A stretch of DNA of 64,000 bases, taken from positions 40,714 through 104,713 of the forward strand of contig SVRD01000006.1 of assembly GCA_015064955.1 (NCBI GenBank). Reading direction: 5' to 3'. The stretch comes from Oscillospiraceae bacterium. Its GTDB lineage: Bacteria; Bacillota; Clostridia; Oscillospirales; CAG-382. The notes below the pieces were generated by a model. The model worked only from the letters and a program-made list of their open reading frames with translations. It had not been told where the DNA came from and did no database searches. Every line of letters starts with the position of its first letter. Within the stretch, counting starts at the first letter, position 1. Positions 2,462-40,775 of the stretch are shown one piece after another. A program made the translations under genes and the position numbers.

Positions 2462-3490
2462 ATGAATATGCAATTTTTCCGCAAATTACCTATTCCCCAG
2501 CAGGTAAAGCAGGATTACCCCGTGACTCCCGAAATGGAGTCTGATAAAAACTCCCGCGATGCCGAGATCCGGTCGATATTCAAGGGTGAATCCGATAAAT
2601 TTATCCTTGTTATTGGTCCTTGCTCCGCAGACCACCGCGAGCCCGTTCTCGAATATATCTCGCGCCTCAGAACACTTCAGGATAAGGTTGACGATAAGAT
2701 TTTTATTATTCCCCGTATCTATACTAATAAACCCCGTACAACAGGCGAGGGATATAAGGGAATGCTCCATCAGCCCGACCCCGACGAAAAGCCCGATATG
2801 TACAAGGGCATCGTCGCGATACGTGAGCTCCATATGAGCGCACTGAAGGACTACGGCTTTACCTGCGCCGACGAAATGCTCTATCCCGAAAACCACCGCT
2901 ATCTTTCCGACCTTTTGGCATACGTTGCGGTAGGTGCACGCTCGGCAGAGGACCAACAGCACCGCCTCACCGCAAGCGGATTGGATTGCCCGGTCGGTAT
3001 GAAAAACCCCACCGGCGGCGACCTTACGGTTATGATGAACTCGATCCGTGCCGCTCACTCAAGCCATACCTTTATCTATCGCGGCTGGGAGGTAAAGAGC
3101 GCGGGCAATCCCTATGCCCACGCGATCCTTCGCGGTTACGTCGATTTCGCGGGTAAGAGTGTTTCCAACTACCACTACGAAGATCTTGTAAAGCTCAACG
3201 AGCTCTATCTCGCATCCGGCTTGGCAAATCCGTCCGTGATCGTAGATACAAACCACAATAACTCGGGCAAGCGCTATCTCGAGCAGATCCGTATCGCAAA
3301 CGAGATAGTGGAAAGCCGAAATTATAACTCTGATGTCAAAAAGCTTGTAAAGGGCTTGATGATCGAAAGCTATATCGAGGACGGCGCACAAAAGATCGGC
3401 GAGCATACCTTCGGGAAATCGATAACCGACCCCTGCTTGGGCTGGGAAAAGACCGAAAAGCTCGTTCTCGAATTGGCAGAAAAACTTTAA
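2462..3490 (+). CDS. aroF: 3-deoxy-7-phosphoheptulonate (DAHP) synthase, class I
   Basis: 342 aa. Contains VIGPCSADHRE and IPRIYTNKPRT motifs. Last gene of the aro block. Confidence 0.85.
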   Translation: MNMQFFRKLPIPQQVKQDYPVTPEMESDKNSRDAEIRSIFKGESDKFILVIGPCSADHREPVLEYISRLRTLQDKVDDKIFIIPRIYTNKPRTTGEGYKGMLHQPDPDEKPDMYKGIVAIRELHMSALKDYGFTCADEMLYPENHRYLSDLLAYVAVGARSAEDQQHRLTASGLDCPVGMKNPTGGDLTVMMNSIRAAHSSHTFIYRGWEVKSAGNPYAHAILRGYVDFAGKSVSNYHYEDLVKLNELYLASGLANPSVIVDTNHNNSGKRYLEQIRIANEIVESRNYNSDVKKLVKGLMIESYIEDGAQKIGEHTFGKSITDPCLGWEKTEKLVLELAEKL

Positions 3491-3494
3491 AAAC

Positions 3495-3530
3495 AAAAGA
3501 GAGAAGTGTAAAAGCTTCTCTCTTTTGCTT
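3495..3530 (+). terminator. rho-independent terminator of the aro operon
   Basis: Perfect 12-bp stem aaaagagagaag/cttctctctttt with an 8-nt loop and a T-rich tail. Confidence 0.8.
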
Positions 3531-3569
3531 CGATCGATGTTTCTTCGTTTCGGAAATATTCGTTATTAC

Positions 3570-4517
3570 TTAAAAATAATGATAAAGCAGAGATTTTCGT
3601 AAATTTTCTGTTCCGTCTGCGTATACTACCGTATACCAAACAGTAACTTGGATTATATGATCTTTTTCATCGTAATGGAAATAGCATGGCCCGTGAATAC
3701 TAAAGTCGATTACTTCCTTTACATATTCAAAATTTTTGTCGGCGTAATAATCCAAAACCACCGTTTTGGCACTTTCAAGATATTCATCGAGCGTATAATC
3801 AGGCAAATCCGGTATTTCATTGTCTTGAAAATCTTTGAATCGACAAACCGAACCGGTCGAATATTCAATCCAAACTTCACAGCTATTTATACATATTCCG
3901 TTCTCGTCATATTGCCTGAAACAGAATTGATGCCAACCTCCGCGAGTGTGAGTAAACTCTGGGTCAAGCTTAACTGTGCTCCAGTCAATATTTTTGCAAG
4001 TGTTTTCGCGAACCCAAGGTTCAGCGATCTTAAGAAGCTCTTCTTCTGTATAAGGTTCATCTCTTTTAGCGGTTCCCGGATCAGTGATAAACATGAAGTG
4101 CGGCGTTTCTGTGCCTCGTTCAAATCCGATTCTACCAAAGTCCTTAACACGATAATAATCCAGTATAAGATAGGTATGCGCATAGTGCATTGAATCTTCA
4201 TATACTGCATTTTCGAAGTTATAACCGAAATATGTTCCGCTTATAGTTTTGCCTTCCAGTTCTTCGTAATACAGAACTTCATTAAAATACCCCGGGTCGA
4301 TAACTGCGATTTCATTTATATCGTCATAATATCCGTAAGGAGGCGGGTATAGGATTTTTGCTACCACAAACTCGGGAAGATCGTTGCTTGGATAGGAAGA
4401 ATCTATGTTTGATAACTCGTCACTAACATTGGAAGATTGTATATCCGTAGTTGTATCAACCTGACACGATGACAAGATGATAATAGAAACAATCAACAAA
4501 CATATGATTTTTTTCAT
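3570..4517 (-). CDS. hypothetical lipoprotein
   Basis: 315 aa. Signal peptide MKKIICLLIVSIIILSSC has a lipobox (LSSC). The gene is AT-rich and I recognise no family. Confidence 0.6.
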   Translation of the reverse strand: MKKIICLLIVSIIILSSCQVDTTTDIQSSNVSDELSNIDSSYPSNDLPEFVVAKILYPPPYGYYDDINEIAVIDPGYFNEVLYYEELEGKTISGTYFGYNFENAVYEDSMHYAHTYLILDYYRVKDFGRIGFERGTETPHFMFITDPGTAKRDEPYTEEELLKIAEPWVRENTCKNIDWSTVKLDPEFTHTRGGWHQFCFRQYDENGICINSCEVWIEYSTGSVCRFKDFQDNEIPDLPDYTLDEYLESAKTVVLDYYADKNFEYVKEVIDFSIHGPCYFHYDEKDHIIQVTVWYTVVYADGTENLRKSLLYHYF

Positions 4518-24850: not shown

Positions 24851-24937
24851 GCCGGAATGATGGAATTGGCAGACGTGCTGGACTCAAAATCCAGTGGTAG
24901 CGATACCGTGCGGGTTCGACCCCCGCTTCCGGCACCA
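24851..24937 (+). tRNA. tRNA-Leu (anticodon CAA), class II with long variable arm
   Basis: Acceptor GCCGGAA/TTCCGGC, anticodon arm CTGGA-CTCAAAA-TCCAG, variable arm GGTAGCGATACC, T arm GCGGG-TTCGACC-CCCGC, encoded CCA. 87 nt. Confidence 0.9.
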
Positions 24938-24938
24938 G

Positions 24939-24975
24939 AAAAGTCTCCAAGTTATATACTTGGAGACTTTTGCTT
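24939..24975 (+). terminator. terminator after tRNA-Leu
   Basis: Perfect 12-bp stem aaagtctccaag/cttggagacttt with a 7-nt loop. Confidence 0.8.
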
Positions 24976-25335
24976 GTTACGGGTTGGCACCAACACTCCC
25001 GAAAACGGCAGATTTTCTATGCCCCGTCTGGTTTTGGGAATTGTTCGACACTCGTTATGTTACTGTTGTGAGTGCCGTTGGTAATGTTAATTTTGATATT
25101 ATATATGTACTGGCAAAACACAATTCTCCAGAAATCCAGTTTTCCAAGTATAATAGAGTAATATTAAACTTCCGAAACTTTTTCTTCGAAAGTTTTGATG
25201 TTTTTGGGAATCATAAACGAAAACTGTATATATGCGTATTATCGATGTGTTTGATATATTGAAAAGTCAATCGATATATGTTAAACTAATGCGAAAGTAG
25301 AAGAAATGAAGTAATACCACGATAAAGGATAAGAT

Positions 25336-26376
25336 ATGAATTTTACATTTAATGATTATATACTTGATGTGGATATTGAAAAAATGAAAAGTGTTATTCT
25401 GAAAAACTACAAATGCCAATGTGCAATTTGCAAAGCTTTTAGAGAATATGCGGACACTTTAGATGAAAATATAACAGCCAAATTGATTGCCTTGGGTGTT
25501 AATATAGAACGTCCTGATGAGGTTTTTGACATAGGCGAGGATGAAAACCAAAATGTTTGCTATTCCGGGTGGTGGAATATTTACGGGAAGATTCTAACAA
25601 AATCCCAAACACCTTACCAAATATCCGACGGCTTTGAGCTAACCTTCTGTGACGATAGCCAATATGCTCCGCGGTGGTTTCAAGGTAGTGACTATTTTCA
25701 AATGCGTTTTTTAATTCGCAAAAGCCAGCTAAAAAGAATTGGGAAGAAATATCAAGTAGGCGACAAAACAGTATTTTCTTACCATATAGGCGATAATGCT
25801 TGTGCAAATATGTATAATCTTATTGGCGGAAAGATTTTCAAGATTTATTCCGATAGTATTATAAAAAACGATGCTCAAATAAAGTGCCATAATGTGGAGA
25901 TTTTCATAGAAAACGAATCCCGTTATCAAAAGCTTTCACTTTCTGTATCGCGGGATTTAGATACCTGCTTTGATGGTATAGACCGAATGGCGCTAACACT
26001 TGATAGCGTTAACATTGACTCCACCGAAGCAGAGCTATTGCTACAAGATGATATCATTTCTTGCTCGATGGGAAAAATCAAATGTATTAAAGTTTTTGAA
26101 AGTACAATCGAGGGTGAAAACGACAAGGTTGTTTATGATTCTCACATCGTCATCGAGGACGACTTAGGGAAGAAACTTATCTTTCGTGCAGAGCCCGACG
26201 GTGAAGAAGTGATGACGGTTTTCACTGACATAGATGATAATGACGTAGAAAAATATCTTCGCGTTTCGGATACTTGGTTTGTAAATGACGATTCGGCTTT
26301 TTATGAAAACAACGAGATAGACGGCGTGAAGAATTGTTACAAAACCGAAACGAAACTTAGAGTTTTTGTGATGTAG
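25336..26376 (+). CDS. hypothetical protein (island cargo 1)
   Basis: 346 aa. AAAGGATAAG RBS. Acidic, with no signal peptide, TM helix or catalytic motif that I recognise. N-terminal CQCAIC cluster. Markedly AT-rich. Confidence 0.6.
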   Translation: MNFTFNDYILDVDIEKMKSVILKNYKCQCAICKAFREYADTLDENITAKLIALGVNIERPDEVFDIGEDENQNVCYSGWWNIYGKILTKSQTPYQISDGFELTFCDDSQYAPRWFQGSDYFQMRFLIRKSQLKRIGKKYQVGDKTVFSYHIGDNACANMYNLIGGKIFKIYSDSIIKNDAQIKCHNVEIFIENESRYQKLSLSVSRDLDTCFDGIDRMALTLDSVNIDSTEAELLLQDDIISCSMGKIKCIKVFESTIEGENDKVVYDSHIVIEDDLGKKLIFRAEPDGEEVMTVFTDIDDNDVEKYLRVSDTWFVNDDSAFYENNEIDGVKNCYKTETKLRVFVM

Positions 26377-26442
26377 AGTGGAGAGATGAAGGAGATGATG
26401 GAAATTTAATAACACAAAGAATTATTAATGAGGGGGATTTTA

Positions 26443-26994
26443 ATGAAATTCGATTTTGAGAAACTATCTAAAGAAGATTCGCACAAGATAAGGCAAAACT
26501 TCATTGATATGTTTGTCGATACATCTCATGATCTTTTTGTAAAGTATATACGGGATGTTAAAGCCGATGATATTTGGGAAGGTTATGGGCATATTGCGTC
26601 GTATTTGTTTGCCTGTTTAAAAAATAGTGTAAGTCATAAGGAATATACTAGTAAGGCGTTTGAATATTTGAATGGATTGAATAACAATGATACTCTCTTT
26701 GTTATGTTTGATGTTCGTCCCGCAAAACGAATTTATCCCGATGGTTGCCGTTCGATTGCTGAGCCATACACGAAATACTTTGATTCTGATATGGTTTTGA
26801 GAATTAAGGCAGATGATTTGTATAACGTTTTAATGCATGATTATAACAGTCCTGTGGGAAATCAGATATTTGGTGAAGATGTGTATGTGTTCGAGCCATC
26901 ATTTAAATGGTATATTGCTTTTACTCATAATTCTTTCGTAGATGATCAGGGAAGCGAATGTGGTCAGTATTGCTATTCTAATATAACATTATGA
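26443..26994 (+). CDS. hypothetical protein (island cargo 2)
   Basis: 183 aa from the ATG at 26443, after a GAGGGGGA RBS; the tracked start at 26428 overlaps the RBS. Cytoplasmic, with no recognised domain. AT-rich. Confidence 0.55.
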   Translation: MKFDFEKLSKEDSHKIRQNFIDMFVDTSHDLFVKYIRDVKADDIWEGYGHIASYLFACLKNSVSHKEYTSKAFEYLNGLNNNDTLFVMFDVRPAKRIYPDGCRSIAEPYTKYFDSDMVLRIKADDLYNVLMHDYNSPVGNQIFGEDVYVFEPSFKWYIAFTHNSFVDDQGSECGQYCYSNITL

Positions 26995-27054
26995 CTACAA
27001 GCGAAAACGTTGTTTTTAATTTACAATCGAAAGATGAATGTCGGTCACCACGTA

Positions 27055-27105
27055 CTTCCGGCACCACGAAACTCCCCAAGCTATATGCATGGGGGGTTGT
27101 TTTTG
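27055..27105 (+). repeat. att-like copy A: tRNA-Leu 3-prime 12-mer plus a diverged copy of its terminator
   Basis: cttccggcacca at 27055-27066 is identical to 24926-24937. The following cgaaactccccaagctatatgcatgggggg is homologous to gaaaagtctccaagttatatacttggag and is followed by a T-run. Confidence 0.65.
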
Positions 27106-27191: not shown

Positions 27192-27217
27192 CGACCCCCG
27201 CTTCCGGCACCAGAAAA
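27192..27217 (+). repeat. att-like copy B: 26-bp perfect direct repeat of the tRNA-Leu T-loop through CCA plus 5 nt
   Basis: cgacccccgcttccggcaccagaaaa at 27192-27217 is identical to 24917-24942. Confidence 0.85.
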
Positions 27218-27247
27218 CGACAGATTTCAAGGGGAATCTGTCGTTTT
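27214..27247 (+). terminator. hairpin terminator attached to copy B
   Basis: Perfect 13-bp stem aaaacgacagatt/aatctgtcgtttt with an 8-nt loop. Confidence 0.7.
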
Positions 27248-27248
27248 C

Positions 27249-27422
27249 AGTTATATTCGCCTTCGGCGAGTTATATTGCCTTGCAGTTATATTTGGCTTG
27301 CGCCAAGCTATATTGCCCGATGGGCAGTTTTGGAGGCGAATATAATATCACTGCTAAACTAAGTGAAGCAATATCACCACGAGCAAGGCGAGTAATATCA
27401 CTCCGTCGAAGACGGAATATCC
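27249..27422 (+). repeat. two families of short direct repeats, each unit followed by a GC mini-hairpin
   Basis: AGTTATATT at 27249, 27269 and 27285, and AGCTATATT at 27306. AATATCAC at 27344, 27370 and 27394, and AATATCC at 27416. Mini-hairpins include cgcc-ttc-ggcg, ttggc-ttgc-gccaa, tgccc-gat-gggca and tccgtc-gaa-gacgga. Confidence 0.7.
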
Positions 27423-27491
27423 TTAAAGTCTTACAATTTTGCAAAAGTCCGAATTCATACTAAAAAATGCCGAGGATATCTTTTTTTGTAG

Positions 27492-27509
27492 CCGGCACCA
27501 TGAAAAGTC
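27492..27509 (+). repeat. att-like copy C: ccggcacca(t)gaaaagtc
   Basis: Matches 24929-24945 (tRNA 3-prime end plus the first 8 nt downstream) with a single 1-nt insertion. A strong terminator follows immediately. Confidence 0.55.
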
Positions 27510-27540
27510 ACTTTTGTCTACGACAAAGGTGACTTTTTTC
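27503..27540 (+). terminator. strong rho-independent terminator with no upstream gene (possibly the ancestral tRNA-Leu terminator)
   Basis: 16-bp stem aaaagtcacttttgtc/gacaaaggtgactttt (one G-U pair), 3-nt loop, T-run. Confidence 0.75.
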
Positions 27541-27609
27541 AATGATATCAGTTCTTCGCGGAATGGGTGATATTTGTCTTTGGCATATAAGAAACAGATA
27601 TTATATTTA

Positions 27610-27638
27610 TTGACACAAATTTACAAGTATGGTATAAT
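27610..27638 (+). promoter_or_regulatory. glnA promoter
   Basis: TTGACA (27610-27615), 17-nt spacer with an extended -10 TGg, TATAAT (27633-27638). AAGGAG RBS before the ATG at 27665. Confidence 0.75.
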
Positions 27639-39530: not shown

Positions 39531-40775
39531 TCAAAACTCCCTGATGATTTTTGCCATATAAAAGCCTTCCTTTTCTTCACCAAACGGCAAGCAGGTCTCG
39601 TCGTGCAAAAGTGCAAACGACGGATTTGCGGTGAGAAAAGCTCTTACAGTGTCTTCGTTTTCTATTTTGTTTATCGAGCAGGTCGAATAGACCATTATAC
39701 CGCCGATCTTGAGATATTTTGCGGCATTTTCGATAATAATTCTCTGCGTGCGGTAGATGCCATCGAATTCGGACGGCGATTTGTATTTTATTTCGGGCTT
39801 ACTGCCCATAACTCCGGTTCCGGAGCAGGGAACATCGCAAATAACTCTGTCGGCAACTCCGAAAAGCTCTTTCTTCGGTGCCTTTCCGTCACACACATCG
39901 GTTTCGATAATCGTTATACCCAAAGCTTGCGCGCTTTTTTCTATCAATGGCAGCTTGTTTTTATGAATATCAAAGGAATAGATCCTGCCCTCGTTGCACA
40001 TATTGATCGCCGCACCGATGCTTTTTCCGCCGGGGCAGGCACAAACGTCGATAACCGTGTGACCTCTTTGTGCATCCAGCAGTCTGACAGCCTTTTGCGA
40101 GGCTTTGCCTTGAATATAAAAGTCGCCGTTGTTGATTATTGAAAGCGCCTTCTGCACGTCACCGCAAAGTACTGCGGTATCATCACAAACAGTTCCGTTT
40201 GTAGCGTCAGCAACCTTTTGTGCGTAGGTCTTGAGCGTATTAACTCTTAAATAAACAGGCTGTTTACCGAAAAATGCCTCGAAAATTCTGTCGCACTCCT
40301 CGGGATATTGCTCATTAATAAGATTATAAAGCTCTTTGTTGACCGAAAGCCTTATATTCGGTGAAGCCGATTCGAGCTTTTTATAAAGGCTTTCTTTGCT
40401 TCGGCAAGCATTTCTTAAAACCGCATTGGTAAAACCTGCGCGCTTGCTGCCGAAAAGCTCTTTTGAAATCTCGACCGTTTCGTCACAAACTGCACTATCG
40501 GGCACTCTGTCCATATAAAAAATCTGATAAAGCGCAGTTAGTAACAGACATTTTAAATGCTTATCCGTGGAGCTTCTGATAAGCTCATCGAGAATAAATT
40601 CAAGTGACAGCTTGCGCTCGACTGTACCGACAGCGATGCTTTCCGCAAAAGCGCGGTCGATCCCGATTAAATCATCGGGATATGATATTAGATTTGAAAA
40701 AGCACCGTCGTTAATACGCTTGACAGCGTTATATGCCGCGAGCCTTGCTTTATCACTCATTAACTTTTGTTCCAA
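39531..40775 (-). CDS. rsmB: 16S rRNA (cytosine967-C5)-methyltransferase
   Basis: 414 aa. NusB-like N-terminus, SAM motif DVCACPGGKS, and catalytic DVPCSG and TCS. The start could instead be 40760. Confidence 0.85.
   Translation of the reverse strand: MEQKLMSDKARLAAYNAVKRINDGAFSNLISYPDDLIGIDRAFAESIAVGTVERKLSLEFILDELIRSSTDKHLKCLLLTALYQIFYMDRVPDSAVCDETVEISKELFGSKRAGFTNAVLRNACRSKESLYKKLESASPNIRLSVNKELYNLINEQYPEECDRIFEAFFGKQPVYLRVNTLKTYAQKVADATNGTVCDDTAVLCGDVQKALSIINNGDFYIQGKASQKAVRLLDAQRGHTVIDVCACPGGKSIGAAINMCNEGRIYSFDIHKNKLPLIEKSAQALGITIIETDVCDGKAPKKELFGVADRVICDVPCSGTGVMGSKPEIKYKSPSEFDGIYRTQRIIIENAAKYLKIGGIMVYSTCSINKIENEDTVRAFLTANPSFALLHDETCLPFGEEKEGFYMAKIIREF

Follow-up and report, generated by a model that had tools for sequence, protein, structure and literature searches.

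Polyimmunity loci, as defined by Zhang et al. (2012, PMC3482391), are runs of co-oriented, tightly spaced and functionally equivalent immunity genes that hold no toxin genes, vary between genomes, in some cases have a recombinase beside them and are often found in Firmicutes; the same work describes polyimmunity proteins, in which unrelated immunity domains are fused. A related group of systems, the acquired interbacterial defence (AID) clusters of gut Bacteroidales, is presented in the excerpted account of Ross et al. (bioRxiv 10.1101/471110) as horizontally acquired arrays of orphan immunity genes, sometimes associated with recombinases. Here, these systems are compared with two open reading frames (ORFs), ORF-A and ORF-B (A and B for short), found next to a tRNA-Leu gene of Oscillospiraceae bacterium (assembly GCA_015064955.1, contig SVRD01000006.1, forward-strand positions 40,714 to 104,713). 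The 64,000 nucleotides (nt) analysed are referred to below as the window. The explanation preferred here, which we consider probable by a modest measure, is that A and B form an orphan immunity-type gene pair, i.e. a minimal polyimmunity cassette of uncatalogued families in which both products are toxin binders. It is favoured by the shuffled, co-oriented arrays in which relatives of the pair reside, by the occurrence of one domain of A (AN) among SUKH/SuFu genes, by the translational coupling of a B-family gene to an Imm32 gene, by the position of an A homolog in an array of polymorphic secreted proteins (L219), and by the weak fold match of B to the immunity protein CdiI; the acidic and cytoplasmic character of both proteins, the lack of any enzymatic motif in them, the foreign base composition and tRNA hot spot of the pair, the variable linkage and the fusions of its genes, and the single-gene mobility and purifying selection of B were also counted in its favour. 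Of the three roles that had been proposed for the pair in an initial annotation, orphan immunity is thus the one retained, while an anti-phage or abortive-infection role and an anti-defence role received no support.

ORF-A (25336-26376, plus strand) encodes 346 amino acids (aa) and ORF-B (26443-26994, plus strand) 183 aa, and the two are co-oriented and separated by a spacer of 66 nt. This arrangement had already been described in the initial annotation and is borne out by the ORF list and the sequence, as is the presence of a good ribosome-binding site in front of each gene, namely AAGGA upstream of the ATG of ORF-A and GAGGGGGA 7 nt upstream of the ATG of ORF-B at 26443. An alternative start of ORF-B at 26428 would yield 188 aa, and public gene calls use both starts; the strength of the ribosome-binding site in front of 26443 argues that the 183-aa form and the 66-nt spacer are the correct ones. 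Both genes are considered real, ORF-A because full-length homologs of it fall into 59 clusters, and ORF-B because its comparison with an 88%-identical homolog gives a ratio of non-synonymous to synonymous substitution rates (dN/dS) of 0.20, indicative of purifying selection. The view that both products are acidic, cytoplasmic and free of transmembrane helices, signal peptides and recognisable nucleotide-binding or protease motifs also holds: the isoelectric points are 4.60 for A and 5.04 for B, the peak 19-residue Kyte-Doolittle hydropathy values (0.93 and 0.51, respectively) leave no room for a transmembrane helix or a signal peptide, and a motif check detected neither a Walker A nor an HExxH motif in either protein. 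Likewise, no significant match to A or B was obtained in Pfam, NCBIfam, PADLOC or PHROGs. The earlier statement that the pair has no recognisable domains is therefore accurate as far as significant matches are concerned, and has to be amended in two respects, as B is a sub-threshold relative of the DUF4275/DUF6756 superfamily and A a fusion of two domains.

Seen from its anatomy, the pair resembles a polyimmunity locus in several ways. A and B are tandem genes of the same orientation with a short spacer, and no toxin gene interrupts them, given that they are the only coding content between the intact tRNA-Leu gene and the nearest degenerate copy of its 3' end, as had been claimed and as the window ORF list confirms. 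The same anatomy is more pronounced among the relatives: nearly all A homologs with enough flanking DNA belong to arrays in which as many as 12 small genes without Pfam match follow one another closely in the same orientation, with spacers of 0-100 nt, and these arrays occupy unrelated chromosomal sites (loci L014/L015, L010, L006, L007, L219 and L220). They draw on a set of recurring, shuffled families with products of 114-116 aa, 210 aa, 170 aa (the “C” family), 146 aa, 178 aa and 100 aa (a zinc ribbon), the last of which is also found fused to A (P0017) and to a helix-turn-helix (HTH) protein (L005). These arrays fit features 2 and 3 of the polyimmunity anatomy set out by Zhang et al. (2012, PMC3482391), and the likeness extends to small cytoplasmic products encoded without an adjacent toxin gene, to fusions of unrelated domains, to co-residence of A/B relatives with SUKH, SuFu and Imm32 genes, and to their being common in gut Firmicutes. 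There are, however, differences. The locus in the window comprises two genes where “extended” polyimmunity loci have at least four, no recombinase is adjacent to it, no other member of the A, B or array families is present in the window, and the pair belongs to no catalogued Imm, SUKH or SuFu family. Moreover, gene content differs strongly between genomes, yet the pair keeps the same arrangement throughout the species of the window and is not strain-variable within it. Two of the arrays, L219 and L014, contain secreted polymorphic proteins and in this respect come nearer to regular toxin-immunity loci. With regard to the AID clusters, the excerpted account of Ross et al. (bioRxiv 10.1101/471110) relates these to identified type VI secretion system (T6SS) toxins and to experimentally demonstrated protection, whereas the present genes belong to Gram-positive Clostridia and are known from sequence alone.

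The way in which A and B are linked to each other is variable. In the window A precedes B, whereas in L005 and L007-L009 B precedes A, and in three protein clusters (P0046, P0048 and P0083) the two are fused in frame in the order B-AN-AC, where AN and AC denote the N-terminal and C-terminal domains of A. Deeper relatives show still other orders, such as B-AC-AN-F210 in the 717-aa protein P0094 and AC-AN-F210 in P0093. Furthermore, A occurs without B in L012/L013, L014/L015, L010, L219 and L221, B occurs without A in L011, two B paralogs share one array in L220, and in L017 a stand-alone AN gene is followed by a B-like gene. A and B are thus separate cassettes that are often, but not always, found together, and this pattern of both orders, fusion and solitary occurrence points to polyimmunity proteins and loci rather than to an obligate complex. 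For B, the limits of the cassette can be drawn closely. Comparison by blastn with L011, where B lies in a different array, delimits a “B cassette” at 26415-27007 (plus strand) with 89.8% DNA identity, the homology ending about 28 nt upstream and 13 nt downstream of ORF-B, so that it comprises the ORF plus its ribosome-binding site; B has moved as a single-gene cassette with sharp boundaries.

ORF-A is, to judge from profile searches and alignments, a fusion of two uncatalogued domains. AN covers residues 1 to about 135 (25336-25740, plus strand) and carries the cysteines C27-x-C29-x2-C32 (profile search; alignments A5 and A6), while AC covers residues from about 138 to 346 (25747-26376, plus strand) and is mostly beta (alignment A1, AlphaFold model and deep alignment). 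In a profile search of 1.84 billion representative proteins, AN residues 1-125 matched 653 representatives at E<1e-3, and nearly all of these matches cover only positions 1-125. AC, on the other hand, finds few matches, including a stand-alone protein of 214 aa (P0214). Within the A family, AC has the invariant motifs RDxDT, YDSH and ExD (alignment A1), of which only “DSH” is retained in its deep relatives; as for AN, the A lineage has kept the three N-terminal cysteines and lost the His/Cys pair. The AlphaFold model of A (pLDDT 84, pTM 0.82) has no fold match in the Protein Data Bank (PDB) or in BFVD, and searches of the PDB by sequence and profile with A, B and AN returned chance-level matches only, except for a resemblance of the AN motif CxCxxC to the zinc site of TGT (E 0.6).

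Most of the proteins matched by AN are stand-alone proteins of about 145 aa that share the motifs CxCxxC...YGGxYHxCG...FPxPxxQM, form about 650 clusters at 50% identity, are widespread in Clostridia and match no Pfam or NCBIfam model. A scan of named genomes, in which a 12-sequence subset of the AN alignment served as query, located 80 loci of this kind (L016-L095, e.g. L053, L089 and L091, 8001-8490), which span Clostridium, Lachnospiraceae, Oscillospiraceae, Ruminococcus, Erysipelotrichaceae and others. No conserved neighbour of stand-alone AN emerged from these loci: the 420 neighbours form small, mostly housekeeping clusters, and 148 operonic neighbours match 178 Pfam families, led by GNAT (5) and methyltransferases (4), with SUKH present in L030 only. 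AN was also detected in three near-identical viral contigs of IMG/VR and, weakly, in two plasmids of C. botulinum. One of the loci, L090 (4347-10566) from a metagenome-assembled genome (MAG) of Solobacterium sp., shows AN in a co-oriented cluster with at least five GNAT genes, ASCH-like and GyrI-like genes and a 69-aa ORF similar to Imm32; the cluster is of an accessory, “resistance-like” kind and not a toxin locus.

ORF-B (26443-26994) encodes a protein with a predicted alpha+beta fold and the motif EDxYVF(D/E)xSFKWYIAFTH...C.SN, and a profile built from its few relatives reaches proteins that carry Pfam domains DUF4275 and DUF6756. When the 17 members of the B family were scanned individually, with E<=0.1 counted as a match, 12 matched DUF4275 (PF14101; best E 2.7e-7) and 10 matched DUF6756 (PF20541; best E 3.1e-5), and two B relatives, P0078 and P0081, have precomputed DUF4275/DUF6756 annotations. 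The signature EDxYVFDxSFxWxIxFTHE near the C-terminus is common to B and the superfamily, i.e. the B family shows the C-terminal motif ...YVFD.sf.W.i.FTHE of these two DUFs. The ORF-B of the window itself scores 13 bits against DUF6756 (E 0.1), below the Pfam gathering threshold of 27 bits, and it is therefore a divergent relative of the superfamily and not a member by Pfam's rule. Both DUF families are uncharacterised, so that membership of the superfamily gives B no function, and a search of one literature library retrieved no paper mentioning DUF4275, DUF6756 or PF14101. A clue was obtained from the AlphaFold model of B (pLDDT 82, pTM 0.82). In a Foldseek comparison with the PDB, its top match was CdiI, chain I of the contact-dependent inhibition (CDI) complex of E. 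coli A0 34/86 (5T86_I; probability 0.98, E 0.018, TM-scores 0.41/0.57, root-mean-square deviation 6.7 Å, 10% identity), which is also the only PDB fold match with a probability >0.3. The T6SS immunity protein SciX has this fold too (bioRxiv 10.64898/2026.05.10.723254). Like CdiI and SciX, B is small and cytoplasmic, and its model may share with them an alpha+beta architecture in which about four helices flank a central sheet; it differs from them in being 60 residues longer, in having no sequence relationship to them and in the absence of a BECR-fold toxin nearby, the kind of RNase that, encoded upstream, such immunity proteins bind and block. The match, weak as it is and obtained with a predicted structure, may serve as a lead, not as proof.

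Some of the relatives of A and B lie next to genes of recognised immunity families. In L030 (Ca. Mediterraneibacter), AN is directly between two SMI1_KNR4/SUKH genes, with a SUFU gene after and HEAT and Fic genes before them. In L223, the gene of P0082, a distant member of the B family, is translationally coupled to an Imm32 (PF15566) gene, whose end it overlaps by 4 nt; Imm32 is a family listed as providing immunity to Ntox12, Ntox37 and Ntox7. A different kind of association is seen in L219, where six paralogous secreted proteins (S) alternate with cytoplasmic genes (I) in the order S-I-S-I-S-I-S-I-S-I-I-I-S. An A homolog and members of the 116-aa and 178-aa families are among the genes at “I” positions, which can be read as immunity slots, and a Phage_integrase fragment flanks the array. 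The secreted proteins have in common a signal peptide, a Thr/Glu-rich linker and the motif ELxPMMARxC, and diverge in a hypervariable C-terminal region of 60-85 aa.

This secreted family, considered in its own right, extends over L219 3884-12007 (GCA_052832485.1, JAZMGS010000005.1), has a further member at L014 2446-2862 in the L014/L015 array, finds no match in the precomputed Pfam annotation, and looks like an undescribed family of polymorphic toxins or bacteriocins. Several other constituents of the arrays deserve mention. The zinc-ribbon-like domain of about 90 aa, with the pattern CGCF[YH]C...F.P.EI..W...CP[YHF]CG.DSVIG.S.G.PIT..FL..M...WF, occurs alone or fused to A, to the “C” family or to a 528-aa HTH protein (L014 6406-6711; C-termini of L005 16-1602 and 2371-3732; L010 7158-7928; L220 8295-8636), and matches nothing in Pfam or the PDB. 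Some of the arrays begin with large HTH_3 proteins (540-720 aa) in which TPR and GNAT-like signals are weakly present (L080 6321-8480, L081 2626-4785, L010 3678-7161; protein P0182); in some genomes they end in AN and in others in the zinc-ribbon domain, and they may act as regulators or sensors of the arrays. In L080 and L081, AN is the C-terminal domain of such HTH_3 proteins, 719 aa long and homologous to the two HTH proteins that head the L010 array. The array in L014 that ends with an A homolog includes a 161-aa HExxH protein (3158-3643; weak Peptidase_M6 match, E 8e-4), followed by a 235-aa lipoprotein with a lipobox (3665-4372), and these two could be a small metallopeptidase toxin/inhibitor pair. 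Finally, genes of defence type are occasionally found near A homologs: a TIR-domain protein with C-terminal transmembrane segments is encoded about 2.3 kb downstream of the A homolog in L221 (13353-14237), and an AAA_23/SMC-like ATPase heads the A-containing array of L220 (2711-3475).

If A and B are indeed an orphan immunity-type pair, each protein would be made constitutively and would remain in the cytoplasm, where, as an acidic protein, it would bind an incoming toxin from rival bacteria and neutralise it by occluding its active site. B would do so through its CdiI/SciX-like alpha+beta fold, whereas A would be a bivalent “polyimmunity protein” composed of two independently occurring domains, AN and AC, and the pair as a whole would be the minimal two-gene form of the polyimmunity loci accumulated by gut Firmicutes. 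Should this hold, gut Oscillospiraceae and Ruminococcaceae would possess a large uncatalogued repertoire of immunity type, comprising AN, AC, the DUF4275-like family and at least five more recurrent array families, together with polymorphic secreted proteins of one or more families not recognised so far. What is mapped of interbacterial antagonism would be extended in Gram-positive gut anaerobes, whose toxin-immunity systems have been little charted, and DUF4275/DUF6756 would gain a hypothesis of function for the first time. For the window itself the consequence would be modest, the pair being an accessory cassette and not part of core metabolism, and one that points to tRNA-Leu(CAA) as a place where integration has occurred repeatedly.

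A number of observations weigh against an immunity function, which is founded on anatomy and a few associations at single loci. The links to canonical immunity families come from L030, which is one of about 70 AN loci, and from L223, again one locus; no toxin gene or toxin cassette adjoins A or B in the window; and neither A and B nor their array partners match any Imm, SUKH or SuFu family catalogued in Pfam. The fold match of B to CdiI is weak by its E value and TM-scores, and the secreted proteins of L219 vary over C-termini of no more than 60-85 aa, which could act extracellularly, where a cytoplasmic immunity protein is useless. The invariance of the pair in all 23 contigs of its species, i.e. 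the absence of strain variation, speaks in the same direction. So does the setting of stand-alone AN, most genes of which have housekeeping or miscellaneous neighbours (GNATs, methyltransferases, aro genes); several Oscillospiraceae conserve a synteny in which AN comes after the EPSP synthase and chorismate synthase genes and a DUF4364 gene, and such conservation across species is unusual for immunity genes. Last, AN occurs in fusion with modules of HTH, TPR, GNAT-like, metallo-beta-lactamase and oxidoreductase-like type, which suggests a role in sensing or ligand binding. The survey of homolog neighbourhoods that had been suggested at the outset cuts both ways: it uncovered the SUKH/SuFu, Imm32 and secreted-protein-array contexts and, at the same time, a majority of stand-alone AN genes among housekeeping and miscellaneous ones. 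According to the initial annotation, homologs found consistently in core contexts would have spoken against its island reading, and the stand-alone AN relatives, often placed among core genes such as the aro genes, come part of the way to such a finding.

These fusions and this synteny can also be read in another way, the main rival to immunity, namely that AN, AC and B, with or without F210, form one multi-domain system, e.g. a zinc-dependent sensor or adaptor complex that controls, or is controlled by, the HTH-TPR-GNAT proteins encoded with the arrays. That three or four domains keep reappearing, in all orders and also joined in one polypeptide (P0046, P0048 and P0083; P0094; P0093), that AN precedes a B-like gene in L017 and ends the 719-aa HTH_3 proteins of L080 and L081, that it bears a TGT-like CxCxxC...H zinc motif and that it is held in core synteny in some lineages as a stand-alone protein would all be accounted for. 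Subunits of a complex would, however, not be expected to occur without each other, in no conserved order and in arrays of shuffled content, as A and B do; in addition, the His/Cys half of the metal motif of AN is gone from the A lineage, and AC has no conserved catalytic motif beyond “DSH”, so that we regard a single system as unlikely, if worth keeping in mind. In a more specific form, AN, AC, B and F210 would represent a previously undescribed conflict or sensing system of Clostridia, encoded by separate genes in either order or as single polypeptides of 500-720 aa, and this seems to us rather improbable; to the same low degree we would credit the idea that such a system is wired to HTH-TPR-GNAT regulators, in some genomes also to polymorphic secreted proteins, and that the tRNA-Leu locus harbours its two-gene minimal form.

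The genomic setting (tRNA-linked, low in GC and devoid of an integrase) would also suit a module of two genes for anti-phage defence or abortive infection, carried by a defence island at a tRNA gene, and the TIR-domain gene some 2 kb from the A homolog of L221 and the AAA_23-type ATPase heading the L220 array could be cited in its support. Yet a search of PADLOC-DB v2 gives no family at E<=1 for either protein, neither A nor B contains an effector of nuclease, ATPase, NTPase, TIR, protease or membrane type, the neighbours of their homologs are not known defence genes, and A and B are separable, which together make a defence module quite improbable. Less probable again is that A is toxic or enzymatic and is neutralised by a CdiI-like B, the two forming a toxin-immunity or toxin-antitoxin pair. 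The order A then B with its 66-nt spacer does recall a toxin gene followed by its immunity gene, the fold match of B is to an immunity protein, and many charged residues of AC are invariant across the A family, whose conserved polar residues lie in RDxDT, YDSH and ExD. A toxin would nevertheless be lethal in the five settings listed above in which A stands without a B; L005 and L007 have the reverse order, stable fusions exist in three clusters, A has no secretion or trafficking domain, and only “DSH” survives in the deep relatives of AC. Neither the obligate co-occurrence nor the toxin domain of a type II toxin-antitoxin system is found here, and an A toxin countered by a B antitoxin is ruled out by the solitary A genes together with the stable B-A fusions. 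The attachment-site remnants at the tRNA gene and the low GC content could, lastly, be taken to mean that the pair are anti-defence or accessory genes of phage or plasmid origin, relics of a prophage or integrative element that has decayed. We rate this as the most improbable of the origins considered, given that no relative of A or B is present in 2.9 million IMG/VR contigs or in the PLSDB plasmids, that neither protein has a significant PHROG match and the model of A has no fold match in BFVD, and that the homologs reside in chromosomal arrays.

As to how the pair, whatever its function, came to its present site, the vicinity of the tRNA gene is informative. The anchor of the putative island is tRNA-Leu(CAA) at 24851-24937 on the plus strand (ARAGORN; Rfam tRNA 50.6 bits; repeat family D1), which is followed at 24939-24971 (plus strand) by its terminator, a perfect 14-bp hairpin (inverted repeat I10) and a T-run. 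Beyond ORF-B lie three remnants of the tRNA 3' end on the plus strand. Copy A (27046-27105; repeat families D1 and D3), which forms the distal boundary of the segment with the gene pair, is diverged, its positions 27046-27071 being 69% identical to the last 26 nt of tRNA-Leu; copy B (27192-27248; repeat D1, terminator scan) reproduces these 26 nt exactly (27192-27217, 100%) and continues into a 16-bp hairpin terminator; copy C (27492-27537; repeat D4, inverted repeat I4) is a third, shorter remnant (CCGGCACCA..., 27492-27515) just upstream of the glnA promoter (27610-27638, from the promoter scan). There are thus three nested remnants, not two, and each has its own terminator-like hairpin on its 3' side, as tRNA-Leu itself has.

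The earlier observation that the two genes are more AT-rich than the flanking core genes proved correct: their GC contents are 36.7% (ORF-A) and 33.9% (ORF-B) as against 43-48% in six flanking genes and 45.2% in the window, and at third codon positions the GC fraction is 0.37 and 0.30 as against 0.46-0.56 in the same six genes. The tRNA-linked segment as a whole has 36.8% GC compared with the 45.2% of the window. In having direct repeats of a tRNA 3' end that bound a low-GC segment, the locus agrees with tRNA-gene-linked islands, and the repeats and the low GC indicate that the A/B pair was in all probability gained horizontally and lodged at a repeatedly used tRNA-Leu site. It departs from such islands in its length of only about 2.2 kb, in its three nested remnants, suggestive of serial decay, and in the lack of a mobility gene, as no integrase or recombinase ORF is listed within 24.9-27.7 kb of the window. 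A metagenome scan with the 30-mer of the tRNA 3' end gave at least 120 loci, and among the matches listed were unrelated Clostridia and no close relative in which an empty site could be recognised. The island setting advanced in the initial annotation is consequently upheld by repeats and composition and not by an integrase or an empty site. Three hairpin-tailed remnants without an integrase suggest serial integrations followed by decay at tRNA-Leu.

Within the species of the window, the site is stable. The gene order Rce1-like, tRNA-Leu, A, B, glnA is identical in all 23 contigs (23/23) that encode an identical A protein, whose source names are Ruminococcaceae and Oscillospiraceae MAGs, and the pair appears to be fixed in this species.

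Some minor features of the region remain to be listed. Upstream of the pair, a weak promoter-like site (TTGAAA-17-TAAACT with a TG, 25259-25287, plus strand) is found 48 nt 5' of ORF-A; it scores 9/12 in a consensus scan and is a pattern match only. An ORF of 122 aa at 24894-25262 (plus strand), which starts inside tRNA-Leu and crosses the AT-rich spacer, is most likely spurious, as it overlaps the tRNA gene and is unsupported by homologs. In the non-coding stretch that lies between remnants B and C of tRNA-Leu and the promoter of glnA, the Rfam Gut-1 RNA motif is matched three times below threshold, at 27248-27318 (plus strand), 27340-27425 (minus strand) and 27540-27606 (plus strand), with scores of 38.7, 34.9 and 26.3 bits as against a gathering score of 50 and E values from 3e-5 to 0.05; these matches overlap the short direct repeats D5 and D7 (TTCGCCTTCGGCGAGTTATATTGCC, TTGGCTTGCGCCAAGCTATATTGCC).

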